A DNA stretch of 64,000 nucleotides from Eledone cirrhosa (lineage: Eukaryota), in assembly GCA_964016885.1 (NCBI GenBank), contig OZ024741.1, forward strand, positions 214,830,001 to 214,894,000. Reading direction: 5' to 3'. Of the stretch, positions 7,211-52,552 are shown piece after piece (position 1 is the stretch's first letter; every line of letters begins with the position of its first letter). A program made the translations under genes and the position numbers. The notes under the pieces are model-generated. The model saw only the letters and a list, made by a program, of their open reading frames with translations. It was not told the origin of the DNA and did not search any database.

Positions 7211-10200
7211 AATGGACTGCATACAGGGAAAAGGTGAAATTAGAAGTCAGCGAAGCTGGTCAAAGATGGAACTAGCAGTTTTGATCAAGGGGTGGAGCCT
7301 GTCTGATGGGTCACCACCAAGCAAAAAGATTACGGAGACCCTGAAGAACCATGAAAAAGAAAAGAAATTGATAAGGCCTATGTCCTCATAGCGCCACATA
7401 TGGCGATGCTAAGCCGTGTCCTTAAGGAGGAGAAAAACGAAGAGAAAGGAGACGAAAAAGAAAAGGAAGAAAACACAAGCACGGACCTGAAAGAAAATGA
7501 GATACCCGCCGGCACAGTCAGGGAGGGCAGGCCGGGCAACCAACAAGTAAACGGTAAAGATGAGAAGCGAAATCACCTTCTGAAGGAGAACCAAACGCAG
7601 AGGGACCAATGGACAACTGTCCAAAGGAAGAACAGAAAGCACTGAGACACTGGGAGCAAGAAAACCCAGGTAATGTGCAAGTTCTTCAGGAACGGGACCT
7701 GCTGGCATGGAGAGACAGGGATGGGCTGAAGATTCGCTCACCCTAGGCCCCAAACGAACCATGCCCATCCTACTCGCGCAACATGCCCCAGCCAAAACCA
7801 AAACAAGTCGCTCCAGAAGTATGCTGATGTCGCGCGTGCCGCACCAACAAGGAGAAGGCATGCTCATGCCGACGAGATATAGATGGCAGCAGCAGAGCAG
7901 AAACATTTTTTAGTGATGGCAGAGAAAATTGTATGACAGCTGACCTGGCTGCATCATTTTCAGAGCCAGGGTCACTCACACCAGCACTCAAGACCACCAC
8001 AATTAAGGGACCCAGAGTGGACGCCGCTGACACCAGACCAGGTGTCATACCGACAGCCTTTGCTGGCACCCCAACAGTCACACCAGTGCTGCTGCTGAAT
8101 GTCAGAGGCCTGGTGAAACTCACTAACACGAGTAAAATGTTCTACCTGGGAGACTTAGCCATAAGCAATCAAGCATTATGCATGGCACTAACCGAAACGC
8201 ACCTGACAAGCAGTATAGCAGATGCAGAAATACATATACCAAAATATACTGTATTTCTTTCGGACAGGAAGGAGAGACCTCATGGTGGGGTTGCTCTGTA
8301 TATCCGTGAAGATGTCACACCAATTGTACTGTTGACACATTCAAACTCACTCTGTGACACACTAATAGTACATATGAAGCAACTAAAGACAGTAATATAT
8401 GTCACATATCGGCCGTCCGATGCCCCCAGTCATGAGGGTAAATTTGAGAATAGCCTCAGTAGGATAGAAGAGGTCCTTGACAAACTGGACCAGGGTCTCA
8501 ACATTCAACTGCTGGGAGTCTTCAACCTGCCAAAGGTCAAATGGCCTGAGGGCCACCTCCTCCCTGGAATGACGTCAATATAACAGAGACAGATGGAATC
8601 CCTGCTGGCCTTCACACACAGGCTGTTCATGGAACAAGCAGTACTCCTCCCAACAAGAGGTGAAAATGTCCTGGACTTCTGTTTTACAAACAACGAAGTG
8701 CTCATCCACAATGTAAAGGTGATACCAACAATTTTTTCGCATCATAACTTAGTAGAACTAATGATATGTGGTCCGAGAGAACCATCAGAGACACAACCAT
8801 CAAGAAGCACCGGGACGTTATCCAGCCTTAATTTCTACAAAGCTAACTGGAAAAAGATCAAGAGAGAAATCCGGAAACAAATATGGAGCGAAAACACCGC
8901 CACACAAGACACCAACACACAATTTCAACACTTCATCACAACGATACACACTATATGCAAGAAGTTTGTCCCGGAAAACAAGGCAAACAGACACAAAAAT
9001 CTTATTCCCAGAGATAGGAAAATCCTCATGAGACGTAGAACCAAGCTCTCAAACCAGTTGAATGCACAACAAGAAAACAAAAACAAGAAGGAATCCTATT
9101 TGAAACATGCACTACTTGACACCGAGATTGCACTCAAAATTTTCCAATGAGAATGAGAGGGCAAAGAAAGAAAGCAGGGCCATAGAAAATATTAAAACAG
9201 ACCCTAAGGCCTTCTTTAAATTTGCAAAAGAAACTGCCTCGGTACACTGCAAGATTGGGCCACTCTTCCATACAAACGGTTCATTAACTGAGAATCCCCA
9301 AGAGATATGTGAAATACTGAACGAACAGTACAAAAGTGTGTTCACATGTCCACTGAGGCACATGGTAAAAAACAAAGCCAGAGGAGTTCTTTGATGCAAC
9401 AACACTACATGGAGAAATGGCGACCATCAACCACATAGACATAAAGTAGGAGGATGTGGTATACGCCATAGATAAAATTAGAACAGACTCAGCTGCTGGA
9501 CATGGTGGATTCCCAGCAGTCCTCTTAAAAACATGTAAGCGGGCCTTTGCAACTCCACTGAAGACGCTCTTCCTACCCAGGGATCTGAAAGAAGGCACAA
9601 TATGCCCTATCCATAAAGGAGGTAGCAGAGCGGAGGCCAAAAACTATAGGCCAATCTCCCTGACGTCGCATATCAGTAAGGTCATGGAGCGAGTCGTCAG
9701 AAAGAAACTGATCACTTTCCTCGAGGAAAATGACCGCCTGACAGGCACGCAGCATGGCTTCCGCCCAGGAAGAAGCCGCCTTACACTACTGCTACATCAC
9801 TACGACTGGGTACTGAAACAACTGCTAGACAGCTCACATGTGGACCTGATATATCTTGACTTTGCGAAGGCCTTTGACAAGGTCGACCACGGAATAATAT
9901 ATCACAAACTACACGGACTCGGCATAACTGGAAAAGTAGGTGAGTGACTGCATGACTTCTTAAATGACAAAAGCCAGAAAGTCGCAGCTAACGGGGCCCT
10001 CTCGAAGAAAACCTCAATAACAAGTGGGGTGCCCCAAGGGACAGTCATGGGACCACTACTGTTTTTGGTGGCTCTCCCAGACATGCCCTCTGTAGTACAT
10101 ACGACATCTCTCACTAGCTATGCTGATGACACTAAGGTAGCGCAGGCAATCAAAAACCCGGCTGACCCTGCCCTTTTACAACAAGATCTGGATGCCATAT

Positions 10201-10275: not shown

Positions 10276-10311
10276 GAGCTGAGGATCCGCTAAGGTGAAA
10301 CAATTGTTCTC
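10276..10311 (+). ncRNA. Minimal type I hammerhead motif
   Basis: GAG-CTGAGGA-T CC(GCTAA)GG T-GAA-ACAATTGT-T^CTC with palindromic stem III. It overlaps the hairpin at 10251-10290. Confidence 0.65.
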
Positions 10312-23967: not shown

Positions 23968-24103
23968 ATATTTAATATAGAAATGGCTTCTACAGGACTA
24001 GAACTGTTTCATTCGGGAGAAACCATCAGAAACCCAGGCTTCCTGATGATTTCTCCCGAATGAAACAGTTCTACTCCTGTAGAAGCCATTTATATATTAA
24101 ATA
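23968..24103. repeat. Foldback made of two back-to-back hammerhead motifs
   Basis: AATGGCTTCTACAGGA.TAGAACTGTTTCATTCGGGAGAAA.CATCAG is followed by its reverse complement. Confidence 0.85.
24037..24087 (+). ncRNA. Type I hammerhead ribozyme motif
   Basis: GGCTTC-CTGATGA-T TTC(TCCC)GAA T-GAA-ACAG(TTCTACTC)CTGT-A^GAAGCC: 6-bp stem I and a non-palindromic stem III. Confidence 0.8.
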
Positions 24104-25405: not shown

Positions 25406-25740
25406 ATTGTATGTATGTGCGAACGCTTGCGAATAAACAGAACGATTCGTAGACGAAAAATGTAATCAATTCGTAAAATACTGTTAATATGATCAATCAA
25501 ACCAGTTATAAAGAACTAAAAAATATAAATCGAAAGAAGTGAAGCAACGATTTTGTGATATATAGGAATGTAAATATATTACCATATATGGTCATGAGCC
25601 TTGACGCGTAAAATGGTTGTTGAGAATAAAGGTCAGACTAAAATTAGGCAACAGGGAATATCATCATATATTGTTAAAGTGATTATTCACCATTGCCAGA
25701 TATTTCAGGAAATATTTCCCCTACTCTCTATCTATCTATC

Positions 25741-28700
25741 GGAAGTCAAGCGATTCGTTCGACGCACGAAGCTACAGCCACATTTTCATCAAACCCCACC
25801 GGCTCCGAACGCTCCAGACCCATTTCTCGCCCTGGGCCGACGACCATCGTCTTGGACGCCGGCACCAGGGCAATTTAGCACCCTGGACGCGTTCGTCGAC
25901 GCCTGCCGTAGCGCAGTAAATCGCTTCGACTTCTGCCACCGTTCCAAACGGCATAACATCTCACGGGGCGAACTCCTCGCTCTCCGCTCCTCCCTTACCC
26001 GAGATGACATCATCAACAAACCGGCGGACAAGGGAGGCGCCGTGGTGGTGTGGTGCGCTGACATCTACACGGCCGAGGCCCCTAGGCAGCTCCGTAACCC
26101 CCTATTCTACCGCCCTCTACCCTCCGACCCACACCAACAACAAGTTTCCTCCACCATCCAACACCTTGTCTCCTCCTCCCTCCTCTCTCCCACCGCTTCC
26201 CACTTCATCTTCCGCACACACCGCACCCCACTATCTACTTCCTCCCCATCTCCACAAACCCGACAACCCCGGCCACCCCATCGTCTCCGCTAGCAACTGC
26301 CCCAAGGAACTCATCTCCGCTTTTCTTGACTCCATCCTCGCCCCCTTGGCAGCACCCTCCATTCCCCCATCCCCTCCACCTCCACCCTCCTTCGCCGCAC
26401 CGAGCTGGTCCTCACCCTCAACTGCTTCTCCTTCTCGGGTGAGTTTTACCAACAGGTCATGGGGGTAGCACAAGAATGGGCCCAAACTATGCCAACCTTT
26501 TCGTTGGCCATGTTGAGGCCCAAATCTTTGCCCGGTATACCGGCCCCACGCCCGAACTGTACGGTCGTTACATCGACGACTGTATCGGATCCACGACCTT
26601 CACCCGAGAACAGCTCGACTCCTTTCTCTCCTTCTTCTGCTCCTTCCACCCCTCTCTCCACGTCACCACCTCTATCTCTACCACCCACGTCCACTTCTTA
26701 GACATCTCCGTCACCATCGACCCCTCCCGCCACTCCCTCGTCCCCTCCGCCTTCTTCAAACCCACTGACTCCCACTCCTACCTCGACTTCACCTCCCACC
26801 CTACTCCCAACTCCTCCGGATCCCCGCCTCTGCAGCGGAGATGCTGACTTTTGAGTGCCACGCCCTTTCACTAGTCAGCCATTTCATCCGGAGAGGTTTA
26901 ACCCCCCCCCTCGTTCACACCACCTTCACTCGCACCCGTGTTGTCCACCGTCCACCACCCTCACCCCACGCCACCGCACACCAACCCACCGTCTCGCCTT
27001 CCCCATCACCTACCACCCTCCACCCTTCCCCTCCACCGCACCATCCTCCAACACCAGTCCGACCCCTCCACCTCCCCCATATTCCTATCCACAGCCCTCC
27101 CCTCCTTCAAACGCACGCGCAATCTCCGCACCCTCCTCGTCTACAGCTCCCTACACGCCAACCCAAACATTTCTTCCTCCCCCCCCCGGTTCCCTTCCCT
27201 ATCCAGGCCTCGCTGCCACACCTGACCCCACATCACCAACACCACTACCTTCCAGGGTCCCAACGGCCACTCTCTCTCTGTCCGGCATGCCTTCCGCTGC
27301 ACCTCCTCCAACCTCGTCTATGGACTTCGCCGCACTCCGTGCACCGCAACCTACGTCGGACAGACTGGACGTCGCCCGGTGGACCGTTTCACTGAACACC
27401 TCCGCGATATTCGTCTCGGCGGGAGTTCCCCCATCGCCCGCCACTTTGCCCCCCCCCCCCCCACGGACATTCCGCCCACCACCTCACAGTTTGTGGCCTA
27501 CTCCAATGCTATGGAACACCCGCCACCCCCTCACAGTCGAAAAACACACTATCTTCACCCTACAGACCAACACACCCCCCGGCCTGAACTCCCCACTCCT
27601 ATTCCTTTAGCCTTCGACCGCCCAACTTTCCACCCCGCACATCACCCACATAACACCACTAACACACTCCTCCATTACACCGCTCCACCCCTTGGCCCAC
27701 CCCACAACTAATAATACTGACACTCATCCAAACACGCACACACACACACCAGTACACTACACTCCCTCCTTCGTCCCCAACACCTTTTCTCTCCCTCTCC
27801 CTCTCCCTCTCCCCACTCCACCTACACCCCTTCACACACACACATCCCACTAACACCTCTACTAATATACACCCCATCCCCCCACATCACCACCTTCCCC
27901 CTCCACCTTTCACACCTACCCATCCTCTCCCCTGTCCACCGCACCTCCGACACACAGACACACAGTCCTCACCACATACCGACCATTCCTCCACCTGTCA
28001 TCCCCCTCTACTGCTATCTCTTCACCCTGCCTTGACCCTCTGACCACTTCCCGTTGCGCGAGCACCCCACATCTTTCCACTTCCGACCACCACCACTAAT
28101 GGATTCCACACCACCGGTCATCGGTCCAGCTATCCACTCTATAACATGAGAAATATCCAACATCTTATCGCACACTCCCCGGAACTACCTTAGTGACTTA
28201 CCCACGAACAAACACTCACATTTGTTTTCGAACCACGCCACCTACATCCACACCACGTATAAACACAAACACACACGTGCGTAACCCCACATATACACAC
28301 TCAGCCTCCCTCCCCACCCTCTGACCCCTCTCTATCCATACGCACGCATTCACCGAATTACACGCCACCCCATGCACACACCTTTTCCTGAACATGGAAC
28401 CTCGTTCTTTCCCAACTCTCAGATTCACATACACACACACACACACACACACGTACACCTACACACATACACAAACACCACCTTCAGCCCTCCCTGCTCG
28501 GACCCCCCGCCTCCCTCTCCCAACTCTACCCACCACTTGTTTATTTTTATGTTTATTTTTATTTTTATTTGTACTTCTGCGATCGTTTTTCCTCCCTTTT
28601 CCCACCCCCCCTTTTTTCTAAATGTCTTTCCACCACTCCCCCACACACCCTCGGAACTATCTTCCTACCCACTTTTCTCCTGATGAAGGGCTTATGCCCG

Positions 28701-28790
28701 AAACGCCCCCCCCCCCCCACACGCACTCTCACAAGCGTGAACCTAATAAACTCATATTTGTACTGCCTCTCTGTTTTTGTTCCCGTCTAA
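25741..28790 (+). mobile_element. Decayed Neptune-type Penelope-like element (RT and GIY-YIG at 25741-27610; long 3' UTR ending in a degenerate HHR)
   Basis: Motifs KPADKGGAVVVW, LHKPDNPGHPIVS, MGPNYANLFVG, RYIDDC, HFLDISV, KPTDSHSYL, CTSSNLVY..TYVGQTGR, RFTEHLRDI, TLQTNTPPGLN. CTGATGAAGGGCTTATGCCCGAAACG at 28680, then AATAAA. Confidence 0.9.
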
Positions 28791-28985
28791 GATTTAACTA
28801 TAACTATATATATATATATATATTCTTTTACTCTTTTACCTGTTCCACCCATCCAGCTGAGGCCAGGCCATGCTGGGGCACCATATTCATATATATTTAT
28901 ATTTCCCTACATAAAATGTTTTCCCGTTTCTTCTACATCTTGCTTGATCCCGTCAATCTTTTTATTTCTTTTAGCCATCATTCCT

Positions 28986-30647: not shown

Positions 30648-31264
30648 ACACCGATCATTATAATAAATGTTCGGTGAATCCATACGTACATATATATATG
30701 TGTGCATGTATGTATATATATATATACATACTACTGTACGTCTGTATACATATATGTATGTACGTGTACATACTTATATATAAGTAACAGCCGTACTAAG
30801 AGTGGGAAATGAAATTTCGTTTCATTTTTTCCGTTTATCGTTTTCGGTGCACCCGGCCGATTAACCCACTCGATATGCAAATTAGGCTGCTCAGCCGTTA
30901 ATATGCATAAGGAAAGTATATACTTTCAGACGTTCAATCATCTGGCAGGAAGGTATATGTTGCTGACGATAGCTAATAAGGTTGAAACTAGTACAGCGTT
31001 CCTTTGTCAGTGTTGAACAAACGAGCAACGATGGTTGCTAGACACTACGGCTTAATACGTGATGTTTGTTTACACCGAGCATTATAATAAATGTTCGGTG
31101 AATCCATACGTACATATATATATATATATATATGTGTGCATGTATGTATATATATATACATACTACTGTACGTCTGTATACATATATGTATGTACGTGTA
31201 CATACTTATATTTAAGTAACAGCCGTACTAAGAGTGGCAAATGTAATTTCGTTTCATTTTTTCC

Positions 31265-31302: not shown

Positions 31303-31304
31303 TA

Positions 31305-32235
31305 TTGGAGCTCTGAAATAGCAATATATATATGGATGTATATATAATGTATTTTGCAATAGACTTTATGCTTAATTAAAAGCATTTTGAAGACCGTAAG
31401 CTATTGTTTTAAAGTAGTGACAAATTCACTCACTTTGATCTCAGCAAACAGGGGAGATAAGCCGACAAGACTTGTTTCGCTTTGGTTAAAGCTTATCAAG
31501 GCCAACTACCCCACCTGTCTACTGAGATCATTGATGTTATATTCTTATAGAAATCTAGTAAATAATTAGGAGCTGATTATGCAGGCAGAAATTAAAAATT
31601 AGAATTGGAGCTCTGAAATAGCAATATATATATGGATGTATATATAATGTATTTTGCAATACACTTTATGCTTAATTAAAAGCATTTTGAAGACCGTAAG
31701 CTATTGTTTTAAAGTAGTGACAAATTCACTCACTTTGATCTCAGCAAACAGGGGAGATAAGCCGACAAGACTTGTTTCGCTTTGGTTGAAGCTTATCAAG
31801 GCCAACTACCCCCACCTGTCTACTACTTGTCACTACTTTAAAACAATAGCTTACGGTCTTCAAAATGCTTTTAATTAAGCTTAAAGTGTATTGCAAAATA
31901 CATTATATATACATCCATATATATATTGCTATTTCAGAGCTGCAATTCTAATTTTTAATTTCTGCCTGACCAACAACCGCTCTGCATAATCAGCTCCTGA
32001 TTATTTACTAGATTTCTATAAGAATATAACATCAATGATCTCAGTAGACAGGTGGGGTAGTTGGCCTTGATAAGCTTCAACCAAAGCGAAACAAGTCTTG
32101 TCGGCTTATCTCCCCTGTTTGCTGAGATCAAAGTGAGTGAATTTGTCACTACTTTAAAACAATAGCTTACGGTCTTCAAAATGCTTTTAATTAAGTATAA
32201 AGTCTATTGCAAAATACATTATATATACATCCATA
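31305..32235. mobile_element. Family V: tandem 300-bp HHR-bearing units followed by an inverted tandem block (retrozyme-like)
   Basis: 31305-31524 repeats at +300. From ~31827 the unit runs inverted with a period of ~315. HHRs at 31460-31503(-), 31760-31803(-) and 32063-32106(+). Confidence 0.9.
32063..32106 (+). ncRNA. Type I hammerhead motif with U3-A8 core (family V)
   Basis: GGCC-TTGATAA-GCTT(CAACCA)AAGC-GAA-ACAAG(T)CTTGT-C^GGCT. Long stem I extension GATCTCAGTAGACAGG / CCTGTTTGCTGAGATC. Confidence 0.75.
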
Positions 32236-32272
32236 TATATATACATATATGTATTTATGTATATACATACAC

Positions 32273-32790: not shown

Positions 32791-33802
32791 GGCTTAAGAC
32801 AGACTTTTGACTCTTCTTTTTAGACACACACATATGTATATGCATACAAACACAGACACACGTATATTCATATACATACGTGTATGTATGCGTATATACG
32901 TATGTGTGTATATGTGTGTGTACTCATGCGTATATGTGGGTGTATGTGGCCATGCATATGTATGTAAATGTATATATATATATACCGTTTTACACACTTG
33001 TCTGAAATCTAGAAATATATCGTCCTGTAAATGTGATAAGAATCGCTTGAGTTTTCACTCTGTAACATCCTCTCTATATAACTCCCTTTCTGTCTCCCCC
33101 TCTTTCTCTCTCCCCCCTCTCTCTCTCTCTATAAAACTTCATGCAATAATTTTTTTTTTGTTCTATATGTATACATATGTATACATATGTATATATGTGT
33201 ATGTGTTTTCTGTGTTTGCAGCTCACTCTTCATCTCTGTATATATATATATATAAGTAAATAATCGAGAATCAGAATCTCGGCCCATGAAATAACGATAA
33301 ACAATCTTCGACATGTGTGGCAGAGGGCTCAATAGTTTGGATGAACCAGAGCTATAACTATCGTTAAAATACCAACACATAGAGACGATGCCTAGAATCA
33401 TTCGCACAGCCGAATAAAACGACCAGGAAAATTCGGGTCACTCAAATAATAAATTAATAAATTAATAAATTAAATGAATGTAAAAACTCACCCGGACCCG
33501 CTAGAAGGATGTTAAATTCTAGCTTTTGGGGTTTCTGCAGTTCCTTAATCAATTACTGTCAGCCCACATAAAAAAATATATCTGACTTCTAGTAAAGAGA
33601 TGAACGTGGAAAACTGCTTTCTCAGCGGATGTTTCGTTCAAAAATACAGGGAAACCTGTTACTGGACGCACGTGTAGTCCAGCAAGGGAGGGAACCTCTA
33701 TATTTGGCGAAAGAATTCAGTAAGTGTAAATTTTGTAAGAATACAAAAAATCACATATCGAATAAGAGTTCTCAACAGACGTGTTAAAATAAACAAGAGC
33801 TA

Positions 33803-33847
<45 letters not shown>

Positions 33848-33857
33848 TATATATTAT

Positions 33858-34211
33858 CTTCTCTCCCGTCTTTCGCCGAAAAGACTTAAGTGAAATAGTC
33901 GCTACTTTAAAACCAATAGCGTAAGGTCTTCTAAATGTTTTTAATTAAACATACGGTATATTGAAAATATACTATACATACATTCATGTATACATCGCTA
34001 TTTCAGAGCACCAATCCTAATACCTAATTTTTGCTGGACCGGCAATCGCTCTGTATAGTCAGCTCCTGATTATTACTAGAATTCTTTAAGAATCCAGCTT
34101 CTATAATTTTCGGCGGAAGAGGGAGTGCGTGGCTCTGATGATCGTCAAACAGCACGAAACAGACTGTTAGCTTCTCTCCCTTCTTTCGCTGAAAAGAAGT
34201 AAGTGAACTGG

Positions 34212-34216
<5 letters not shown>
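33858..34216 (+). mobile_element. Diverged family V monomer (313 bp) with a ~45-bp terminal repeat; HHR at 34131-34172
   Basis: CTTCTCTCCC.TCTTTCGC.GAAAAGA..TAAGTGAA at 33858 and 34171. Body aligns with 31827-32140. HHR reads GGCT-CTGATGA..GAA-ACAG(A)CTGT-T^AGCT. Confidence 0.8.
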
Positions 34217-34283
<67 letters not shown>

Positions 34284-34467
34284 AAACGAAAGGAACTGTG
34301 TGGTTACTGTAAACAAAGTTTAAGATGGTTGTATGGATGAAACAAAAGAAGAAAATAAATCCTTCATCAGCTGTAAAACCGAGATCAAGATGTTTCGGCG
34401 CTTAATACAGGACATCTAAAAGCGGTCAGGTAAACCGACCAAATAGTGTGGGGACACAGGACAATGG

Positions 34468-48995: not shown

Positions 48996-50969
48996 CTAAG
49001 GCGGGTAAAATTCCCGAGATCCATGGACGAGTTCTCTCCAGCGGTCTCTGTCCCTCATTATCGCTGCCATATCCTGCATCTCCAACAGACCAGTGTCTGT
49101 CCTTAGGGCATCAACATATGTTAACCTTGGTCTTCCTCTTCTAGTGTGTCCATGTAGGGGCTCCCAAAGGAGCACTGAGTGCAATGTCAACTCTGGATGT
49201 CGGTGAGCATGTCCAGCCAACCTCAGTCTCCTCTGTGTCACATTTGAGCTGACTTTTGGGATGCTCCCATACAGCTCTGAGTTTTTCATCCTCAGTGTAT
49301 ACTGATTAATGTTCAGAGCCATCCTCAGCATTCTCGTGTAGCACCCATCCACCATCTGAGTGAGTCTCTTGGTCAGTGTCCAAGTCTCAGACCCATACAG
49401 CAGCACAGACTCCACTACAGCAATGAAGAGGCGGATTTTCAGGTCTCTACGAAGGTCCGACTTCCACACCGATCTCAAGCTGTGACACGCCGCCCAGGCC
49501 TTGCTCTTCCTCTCAACCACATCATCCTCCGTATTCCCAATCTTTGCTCCCAAATACAGGAAGTCCTCAACCAATTCCAGCGGCTTCCCGCCTACATTAG
49601 TGATCCCCTCTGGCTTCTCAACATTCTCTACCAGATATTTTGTTTTAGTCTCATTCATTCTCAGCCCCACACTCATCGACACAGTCTCAACCTCCCGCAT
49701 CAAATCCTCTGCCTCCTTCACTGTATTTGTCACCAAAACTATGTCGTCGGCAAATTCAGCATCCGATACCTTTTTCGCCCCAACTCTCCTGCTCTGAGCC
49801 GGTGCTACAGTAAAGCCAGTGTCCTGGTGTTTCTCCAGTGCAAGGCGCATACAATAGTCCACTACGATGATAAAAAGGTAGGGAGCCAATGTATCTCCCT
49901 GGAGCACTCCAGCCAGTATCTCAAAGAACTCTGTCATCCCATCAGGTGTAATGACTTGGGCTTTGGTGTTGGTGTAGAGCAGTGATATCAGGTCCACTAT
50001 CCTCTTGGGGATTCCATAAGCCTGTAAGATCTTCATCAGGCAGTAACGGTCCACAGAATCAAAGGCCTTCCTAAAGTCAATGAAAACCATGACCGCAGGA
50101 AGGCACTTTGCTCTAGCTCCCTCTAATATCCTCCTCAGCATCAGGATGTGACTGGTGGTTGATCTACCCTCTCTGAAGCCGTTCTGGTTGTCCCTGAGCT
50201 TCTTCTCCATCTCAGGCTGGATCCTGTTAAGAATCATCCTGTTGAGGGTCTTTGCCACAAGTGATGTCAGTGAGATCCCCCGGTAGTTATTGGTGTTAGA
50301 GAGATCTCCCTTCTTTGGCACTGGGACGATGTTACTGATCCTCCACTGATTCGGGGCAACTCCTTTCTCCAGTGCCCCGTTACAGAACCCCAAGATGATA
50401 TCATCAAAATCACACCTCCTCATCACCTCTGATGCCACTCCATCTTCTCCATGAGCCTTGCCCTCCTTGATCTTCTTCTTGGCTCTCTGAAGCTCCTCTC
50501 TGGTGAAGGGCTCTGTCTCAACATCCAGTTCCTCAAACAGCCGCCTGATCTCCCCAGTGCTCTGGGCTGTGGAGGGTGGCTCTCCTAGTAGGGTCCTAAA
50601 ATAGTCTAGCCATTTCTTCTTCCTATCCTCGGGCCCCGTTCCCTGGATCTGACTCGAACACCTTTTCTTCCTCCCTGTGATCTCGTTGATGATCATCCAG
50701 CTCTCCTTACATCCAGATCTGTCAACCGCTCTCTCCACACTTCTGATCTTCTCTATCAGTGCCTCCTCTCTGACCTCAGTGTAAGCGGTACAGAGCTCTT
50801 CCCTCATCACCTCCACAGTCTCCATCCTCTCCTCCGTAGGATCAGCATAGAATTGGTCCCTGGCAGCTTTCAGGTGTTCTCTAGCTGCACACACTTTTGG
50901 GTTTGCAAAGCTGACGTGCTTCCCTTTGTTCTTTTTCCTCGGCACCAGGGTTTCACTTGCTTTCGCCAC
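48996..50969 (-). CDS. RTE LINE reverse transcriptase (657 aa open frame)
   Basis: [69 protein letters not shown]. Confidence 0.93.
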
Positions 50970-51915
50970 TCCTCGTCACACTCTCCTCAGTCCATCCAAT
51001 ATCTCTCTCCTCTGACTCTCCACACAGAGCACTAAACCTGCTTCTCACTTCCACTGTGAACCTCTCCTGTAGCTTATCATCTTCCTTGAAAGCTCCCCAG
51101 TCATAGATTGTTCTCCGGGGCTGAGCCTTGCTCTTTCTTAAGCTCACGCGGACCTCACTCATAACAAGCCGGTGGTCACTACCCAGTGTACTGAAATAGC
51201 TGTATGGTTCCGTGTTCAGAACACTATTCCGCCACTTTTTCCTCACCAGAATGAAATCAATCTGGGACTTGGACAGGTGCATATCTGAGATGTAGGTCCA
51301 CATCTTCCCCAGATTCTTCCTAAACCTTAGGTTGGTCGCCATCAAGTTCGCCTCCAGGAGGGTGTCTCTCAGTAGTCTTCCATTTCGGTTGGTGTTGTTA
51401 TGGAAGTACCAGCAAGGATCTTCACTGCCCTCCTTACTCAGATGTGCATTGAAGTCCCCCAAAACAAGCAGGATATTGTGTTCCTGAGTGGTGTTGACAG
51501 CTCTACACACCTCCTTATGGAACTCCTCGGCATTCACATCACTGTCCCCCTCGGTTGGACTATAGGCTGAGATGACTGTCAGTCTTGGGTTTCCATTGAA
51601 GGTCACCCTCAACACTCGCGGGGAGATAGGCATTATTTCCCTCACCAACAGATTGGTTTTTGCACTGAACACAAAACCCACTCCTCCTACTGCAGCATTT
51701 GTTGTGTTCTTCACTGCCGATGTAGTGATGAGCTGGCTCTTCCTCCCGATCATCACACTCCTCACGGGCTCATCGTGTAGAATCCTGTGTTCTTGGATCG
51801 CAAGTATCTGTATACCACTCTCCTCGAACAGATGTCCCAACTCCTCTCTCTTCTCCAGCGTTCGAATAGTCCTCACATTCAAAGTGCCCATTTTAATGGC
51901 TCTTCTGCAGGACAA
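50953..51915 (-). CDS. RTE LINE apurinic-like endonuclease domain (5' half of a frameshifted ORF)
   Basis: GTLNVRT, LAIQEHR, GGVGF, ISAYSPT, LGDFNAH, NRNG, SQIDFILV, GSDHRLV. Confidence 0.9.
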   Translation of the reverse strand: MSCRRAIKMGTLNVRTIRTLEKREELGHLFEESGIQILAIQEHRILHDEPVRSVMIGRKSQLITTSAVKNTTNAAVGGVGFVFSAKTNLLVREIMPISPRVLRVTFNGNPRLTVISAYSPTEGDSDVNAEEFHKEVCRAVNTTQEHNILLVLGDFNAHLSKEGSEDPCWYFHNNTNRNGRLLRDTLLEANLMATNLRFRKNLGKMWTYISDMHLSKSQIDFILVRKKWRNSVLNTEPYSYFSTLGSDHRLVMSEVRVSLRKSKAQPRRTIYDWGAFKEDDKLQERFTVEVRSRFSALCGESEERDIGWTEESVTRSGESK

Positions 51916-52552
51916 AACTGCATTCTTTATATTTGTCCTGGGTATGACATTAAACTACATCCAGTGGCAAGGCTCCAGTTCGGGAGTTCAGGAGATGTGG
52001 GGAATGTGGAGTTACCCCTTAGTTGTCATGACTCCCAGGTCTGCCCTGGCCCGGGGTGGTAGTACCTGTTAGGGCTCCATTTATGGGTTAAATAACTACC
52101 TTATTCGAGTGGCGCCGGTAAGGTATTGTCAGCCATTGAAAAGAAATATGGAGAGTCGATCTAACAGCACTAGGGTTAGAGCCCCTAATTACACTGTCAA
52201 GGAGCAGCCTGGTCGTTATGACTCTGCTGGCTTAGAGCCACAGAGAGGGCCAGTGGATGATGGATCAGCTGTCTCTGAGACAAATATGTATATATATATA
52301 CATATATATATGTATATATATATATACACACACATATATATGTATATATATATGTATATATATACATGTACATATATATATATATATACATATATATATC
52401 AATTAGAAAAAGTGTGCATCAAATTACGCCGAGGCCGAGATTATGTGATACAAGATTACATACATTCTTTTCTGAAGAAAGTAATTGTATATGTATGTTT
52501 CTATATATCTATATATATCTATCTATCTCTCTCTCTATATATATATACACAT

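Follow-up and report, generated by a model that had tools for sequence, protein, structure and literature searches.

A putative old copy of an abundant metazoan non-LTR retrozyme with Penelope-type ends, from a family copied mostly from RNA not cut at its ribozyme

Metazoan non-LTR retrozymes were described by Cervera and de la Pena 2020 (PMC7229834) and were linked to Penelope elements by Li, Clavereau and Pollet 2026 (10.64898/2026.07.22.740005). According to the available text of these two papers, they have a non-coding unit of 150-450 nt with one type I hammerhead, amount to thousands of copies, and occur as dispersed monomers and tandem arrays with Penelope-like elements alongside; the family analyzed here is alike in all these respects. 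For Penelope itself, the accessible part of Frangieh et al. 2024 (PMC11167929) reports that the anole protein uses two internal RT starts, which define a tail, nicks AT-rich DNA on both strands and does not need ribozyme cleavage. Craig et al. 2021 (10.1101/2021.04.23.441226), in the sections available, describe an inverted truncated partner copy and a 30-40-bp tail of Penelope-like elements. As for the ribozyme, covariation from C3-G8 to U3-A8 was noted for the Penelope-associated hammerhead of Cercyon elements in Schistosoma mansoni, in the accessible text of Cervera and de la Pena 2014 (PMC4209133), and axolotl HHR_Amex2 has U.U as the base pair of helix II next to the core (PMC7229834, available text).

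The window, that is, the whole 64-kb stretch of DNA analyzed, belongs to a microsatellite-rich genome of 3.0 Gb. Judged by its sequence, the element at 33858 to 34217 (+ strand) is old and mutated and belongs to an abundant family of metazoan non-LTR retrozymes with Penelope-type ends. Since both the element type and U3-A8 were already known, the copy itself is ordinary. In agreement with the 313-bp unit and ~45-bp terminal repeat of the preliminary description, it consists of a 313-nt unit (33858 to 34171) followed by a 47-nt terminal repeat (33858-33904 versus 34171-34217, 40/47 identical). The unit and its partial repeat belong to the A subfamily, which is marked by C3-G8 and by U.U at the base of stem II, and they match its majority sequence in 342/362 columns (94.5%). 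The predicted cut, GTT^A, lies at 34168/34169, and position 33858 corresponds to +3. The left edge had been put 2 nt past the cut, which fits +3; however, it can lie anywhere from -2 to +3, because TTA at 33854-33856 likewise matches the unit and the flank is (TA)n.

All parts of the copy are on the + strand. The 5' partial repeat (33858 to 33904, +3 to +49 past the predicted cut) has a rare variant, A at +39, in common with the 3' repeat. Next comes a second structured domain of three hairpins and an outer stem (33915 to 34002, +60 to +150), which shows compensatory changes between subfamilies and contains 3'-end site 1 of the family (+124 to +142). Site 2 (34017 to 34032, +163 to +178), taken from the family 3'-end table, is internal in this copy. 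The 5' arm of stem I (34107 to 34134) comprises a distal extension (34107-34120), a middle helix (34121-34125) and 3 proximal bp (34132-34134). It leads into the type I hammerhead (34135 to 34168), with the core CUGAUGA at 34135-34141, a damaged stem II at 34142-34155, GAAA, a short palindromic stem III and the GUU cleavage triplet. The 3' arm of stem I (34169-34195) and the 3' partial repeat with its atypical end occupy 34169 to 34217. (TA)n target sequence, assigned to neither strand, flanks the copy at 33806 to 33854 and 34216 to 34281. Further out, both flanks (33748-33795 and 34300-34400) contain other high-copy repeats, as seen from deep contig cover.

We defined a type I hammerhead by the core C/U-UGAN-G/A-A, GAAA, UH, three helices and an open helix I, and found all of these in the family, with helices 80-100% paired in 30 copies. 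The core reads CTGATGA at 34135, versus TTGATAA at 32067 (+), 31799 (-) and 31499 (-) in the 31-32 kb subfamily, which bears out the difference first noticed. The stem I extensions of the two had been regarded as different sequences with the same pairing. The pairing is indeed kept by compensatory substitutions, but the extensions are alignable homologues, not unrelated rewrites; a truly rewritten extension occurs in a distant family, F. The poor pairing of stem II was also real and has two causes, the subfamily-wide U.U at its base and three private mutations (34145, 34154 and 34155, relative to the subfamily majority). Helix II, intact in the family, retains 2/4 pairs here, and in the predicted fold stem II pairs in a register that swallows G12/A13. 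Because the three private changes hit stem II and the predicted fold pairs over G12/A13, the ribozyme of the 33858 copy is probably now dead. The U.U itself is common to the A subfamily, family F and axolotl HHR_Amex2 (available text of PMC7229834). Searching the 64-kb window with Rfam gave 0 hits at the gathering score. Below threshold, Hammerhead_HH9 appeared on the three 31-32 kb motifs and not on the 33858 copy, and an E-value scan of the window returned mostly microsatellite-driven miRNA noise.

The family is large. One 24-mer used as repeat marker has at least 7,006 exact matches in the genome, compared with 0 for a control. Its unit of ~315 nt is non-coding (longest stop-free run 46-87 aa, no RT plus GIY-YIG ORF), falls within the 150-450 nt of retrozymes, bears one hammerhead per unit, and is present in tandem and dispersed copies. 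Insertions were sampled with patterns near the 3' end of the unit. Sample 1 took all 100 listed places of the 7,006 24-mer matches, in the first 57 Mb of C1; samples 2 and 3 comprised 70 of 100 listed of 115 matches, and the insertions behind 100 listed of 295. This yielded 208 unique insertions with 293 arms. The 30 best matches to the query were left out of the end statistics, because they had been selected for covering the query, and one arm with an internal deletion (L069) and one non-F piece (L329) were dropped prior to counting. The 192 distinct ribozyme regions represent many subfamilies, and contigs from four runs of unspecified type show family variants only. Beside family copy L029, about 190 nt before the match in its left flank, we also saw an unrelated hammerhead-like motif.

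A young U3-A8 subfamily is represented in the window by a head-to-head insertion at 31304 to 32242, which has three hammerheads and outer ends at +161 and +141; it is 98-99% identical to its own subfamily majority and about 75% identical to the 33858 copy. Family F, found by chance in L223 (1040-1870, -) and then in further loci (L328-L415), is a distant, young relative (98-100%) with a unit of 310-312 nt (311-312 nt in L223), 78-79% identical in the alignable body. Its arms reach 5.5 kb, and its ribozyme has a fully rewritten stem I extension, a minimal 2-bp stem III and U.U at the stem II base.

The 3' ends were highly concentrated. Among 325 outer 3' ends, 146 fell at +124 to +142 and 133 at +163 to +178, together 279/325, and the ends of family F used the same two sites. 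Site 1 lies inside the three-hairpin domain, about 28 nt from site 2, compared with 30-40 nt for the Penelope tail (10.1101/2021.04.23.441226, available sections); the stretch between the sites may be the counterpart of the tail in the accessible account of PMC11167929. Because the unit is rich in TA around site 1, neither the exact position of this site nor the (TA)n count is sharply defined. (TA)3 adjoins 232/293 of the 3' ends. More than half of the insertions (117/208) have a head-to-head arrangement, in 81 cases with one arm ending at site 1 and the other at site 2. Within the domain (+60 to +150), the three hairpins enclosed by the outer stem are 96.9% paired and 4/26 pairs show double changes, which is moderate evidence, since three of the doubles mark a single split, that between the two principal lineages, and the fourth is contributed by F. 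Lying at the 3' ends, this domain offers a concrete candidate for the signal in cis through which retrozymes exploit Penelope enzymes.

The 33858 copy ends at about +48, in TA microhomology with its target, and so belongs to the rare ends below +110 (16/325 in the family). Either its start site was odd or its end was lost afterwards. Being at neither family 3' site, this end makes the copy a poor witness for the mechanism. Nor is the terminal repeat a fixed feature, because the length of the overlap is set by where the two ends fall.

The preliminary description proposed that the integrated RNA had a ribozyme-made 5' end, or was a circle read slightly more than once, and we tabulated 5' boundaries relative to the predicted cut. 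Of 292 arms, 208 reach +5; 8 of these stop at +1 to +5 and 200 cross the cut site. None of 36 later cut-site encounters stopped at +1 to +5, and neither did any of 89 ends of family F, against about 260 crossings. A ribozyme-made 5' end is therefore not supported as a rule, and as the main route of the family it is refuted by the read-through of 200/208 arms; the family was copied mostly from RNA not cut at the ribozyme. The start of the 33858 copy next to the cut is an exception.

The 5' ends are nevertheless not fully random: they spread over the whole unit without a general pile-up at the cut, but with a modest excess slightly inside it. Relative to the local background, the ratio was 1.9 at +1 to +5 (p about 0.07), 1.3 at +1 to +10 (not significant) and 2.9 at +11 to +18 (21 ends, p=1e-4). 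As the last window was chosen after viewing the data, a family-wise p applies, which is 0.05 when the whole unit is considered and 0.0015 when only windows that begin no more than 20 nt from the cut are. Three of the 21 ends depend on divergent references. Family F, tested afterwards, had 6/89 ends there versus 2.3 expected (p=0.027), in a sample partly from a search slightly favouring such ends. With a TA-anchored pattern, whose overlapping matches stay outside the statistics, ends also cluster by eye near +13 to +16. A null of constant hazard fits poorly, since the hazard increases with length and sampling is biased by the anchors. Over the whole unit, the strongest window is +79 to +86 (11 ends, family-wise p=0.015); it is inside the anchor zone, in the first hairpin of the second domain, and its excess may be sampling bias from the anchors. 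An early pile-up of starts at -3 to +4 was discarded as an artefact: many subfamilies had been compared with only two references, and it was largely gone with a 20-reference library.

For the 33858 copy alone, a linear RNA with a ribozyme-made 5' end, inserted from the cut onwards, is a tentative explanation with the odds somewhat against it. The copy starts at -2 to +3, and the 8 short arms at +1 to +5 compare with 4.0 expected (63 first-pass ends, p=0.04, and the weaker p given above on the local background). Taken together, ends at +1 to +18 number 32, twice the local background (p=0.001). In L049 (1468-1762), both arms start at +1 and meet in a perfect inverted junction, whose centre is the self-complementary tetranucleotide immediately past the cut; this palindrome may record two cDNAs that ran off the cut end. 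Yet besides the read-through counts, the excess peaks at +11 to +18 and not at +1, and in vitro the anole Penelope protein accepts unprocessed RNA as well as RNA whose ribozyme is dead (PMC11167929, accessible part). Stops at +1 to +5 were 6/123 in the U3-A8 B subfamilies with stronger stems versus 2/140 in the rest (p=0.15, not significant). With a local ratio near 2, the start of this copy would be about equally well put down to chance and to run-off from a cleaved RNA.

The +11 to +18 peak is compatible with two causes: either synthesis stalls at the folded core, or ends made at the cut are trimmed back. In the latter case, cDNAs that had run off a +1 end would be trimmed or joined by microhomology. 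The peak is just inside the cut, on a T-rich run able to anneal to (TA)n, and elsewhere in the unit ends become more frequent as AT content increases (hazard 3.1 to 6.3 per 1000). The effect of AT content, however, spans no more than about 2-fold, few ends lie exactly at +1, and in three different sequence types (A, U3-A8 B and F) the peak coincides with the proximal end of the distal helix of stem I. We consider trimming somewhat less probable than not.

Shared variants bear on the form of the RNA. In six subfamilies, non-majority bases common to the arms of one insertion occur at 0.008-0.015 per site, compared with 0.001-0.006 between insertions, so that sharing within an insertion is 2-10 times more frequent per site. 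Likewise, the two repeats of the 33858 copy share one base that is seen in 1/113 other matches. Together with the read-through, such shared private variants suggest that the template was either circular or an uncleaved multimer of homogeneous sequence. The idea of a circle read more than once thus fits both observations, but an uncleaved multimer transcribed from a tandem array in the genome, with the ribozyme acting at another step, accounts for them equally well, as the variants also fit transcription from one homogeneous array. Weak ribozymes are common among retrozymes, 1/9 Xenopus dimers being cleaved (10.64898/2026.07.22.740005, available text), and the A subfamily spread with U.U at the stem II base. 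On the other hand, multi-kb arms would need equally long source arrays, and selection for catalysis, as indicated by the strongly conserved core and the repeated switch between C3-G8 and U3-A8, lowers the likelihood of long uncleaved multimers. On balance, a multimeric template appears unlikely, and we prefer the circle.

Covariation in the ribozyme helices is real, as examined in 30 genomic copies spanning the subfamilies. In these, 89.5% of cells pair, and 17/31 pairs contain double changes (118 cells), versus 3-9 pairs (5-20 cells) in controls with slid partners; the cells are not independent events. RNAalifold recovered distal stem I, stem II and stem III and preferred another pairing over proximal stem I. 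Sixteen of the 30 copies have C-G as their 3-8 pair and 14 have U-A; over all 192 regions this pair is U-A in 91 and C-G in 83 (174/192), U-G in 5, C-A in 4 and other in 9. In a tree of 36 real copies from which the ribozyme helices had been left out, U3-A8 formed two groups parted by C3-G8 subfamilies. A single U3-A8 clade was rejected (p-AU 0.002), requiring at least two 3-8 switches, with the qualification that this grouping was suggested by an earlier tree and that recombination between subfamilies could also matter. The U3-A8 variant is not new, being already published. Cercyon has it in minimal hammerheads (PMC4209133, accessible text), whereas here it is found in hammerheads with helix III and arose at least twice independently in one family. 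The earlier suggestion that RNA structure was under selection is thus supported by the double changes and the repeated switch. A DNA-level satellite shaped by recombination or gene conversion, with covariation as phylogenetic noise, could draw on the existing tandem arrays and on the non-independence of the cells, but is very improbable given copies dispersed on many contigs, fixed 3' ends with variable 5' ends, the excess over slid controls, and the repeated switch.

The family coexists in the genome with autonomous Penelope-like elements: there are more than 10,000 GIY-YIG candidates and many RT plus GIY-YIG ORFs, some of them long. Among 40 loci inspected (20 GIY-YIG and 20 long-ORF) of the more than 10,000 candidates, none had a unit adjoining its RT-endonuclease ORF; only two unit pieces were near these loci, both separate insertions (L118 and L150). 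The 3' flanks of the RT-endonuclease loci examined had nothing in common with the unit. No coding flank was shared among 104 upstream flanks of the family, 3 of which had weak Penelope protein hits.

The window contains other elements. At 25739-28800 (+) there is a decayed, C-rich Penelope-like RT-endonuclease remnant, matched by tblastn to genome ORFs (E down to 4e-22, two fragments without Pfam hit); it has no sequence match to the retrozyme unit and includes a minimal hammerhead-like motif at about 28680. Another hammerhead-like motif of a different family (23985-24100, core 24043) follows its own reverse complement as a head-to-head insertion in (TA)n. Two more, of other families, are at 10279, with a palindromic stem III and an inverted copy of the core nearby, and at 30963, around which an approximately 180-nt direct duplication (30650-30830 and 31070-31250) lies just left of the 31.3-kb insertion. 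By translation and by eye, LINE-like endonuclease and reverse transcriptase ORF remnants were recognized at 7828-9944 (+) and 48999-51954 (-).

Since the 3' ends, head-to-head arms and (TA)n targets match features described for Penelope in the accessible parts of PMC11167929 and 10.1101/2021.04.23.441226, a Penelope-type RT is likely. Our main reading, to which we give a probability of about 0.8, is that such an RT wrote the non-LTR retrozyme copy into (TA)n from RNA left uncut at the ribozyme site that it passed, most likely a circle. Tandem copies would be transcribed, self-cleave and circularize, as measured for coral, mussel and axolotl retrozymes. A Penelope-type RT-endonuclease would then bind the three-hairpin domain and nick (TA)n on both strands, and cDNA would start at the two internal 3' sites. 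Synthesis may end almost anywhere, with a modest stop at +11 to +18, where the enzyme would leave the long stem I extension and meet the folded core. A more speculative version, possible but unlikely, holds that retrozyme RNA circles combine two separately selected modules, a hammerhead whose 3-8 pair switched at least twice and a three-hairpin domain that recruits the RT and fixes its two start sites, and that the RT travels round the RNA through the folded, uncut ribozyme, with stalls 11-18 nt before the scissile bond recorded in the genome.

Compared with EN+ Penelope-like elements (PMC11167929 and 10.1101/2021.04.23.441226, available text), the family is alike in its two RT start sites and tail, AT-rich targets, inverted 5'-truncated partner, partial tandem repeats and hammerhead within the repeat; unlike them, its unit has no ORF and lies beside none of the RT-endonuclease ORFs examined. 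Cleavage and circular RNA have been shown for the retrozymes of PMC7229834 and 10.64898/2026.07.22.740005, in their accessible portions, whereas the present family is known from its DNA. Conversely, 3' ends, head-to-head arms, read-through and the second domain were measured here, whereas the available text of those two papers tabulates no insertion ends. A literature search, conducted largely outside subscription papers and supplements, the latter of which may list relatives, found no paper on this family and no end tables for retrozymes. Which form of RNA the RT copies is proposed but not measured in the available text of the retrozyme papers, and the family-wide end table puts this step to the test. 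The three-hairpin candidate signal lends itself to testing in the published in vitro Penelope system.
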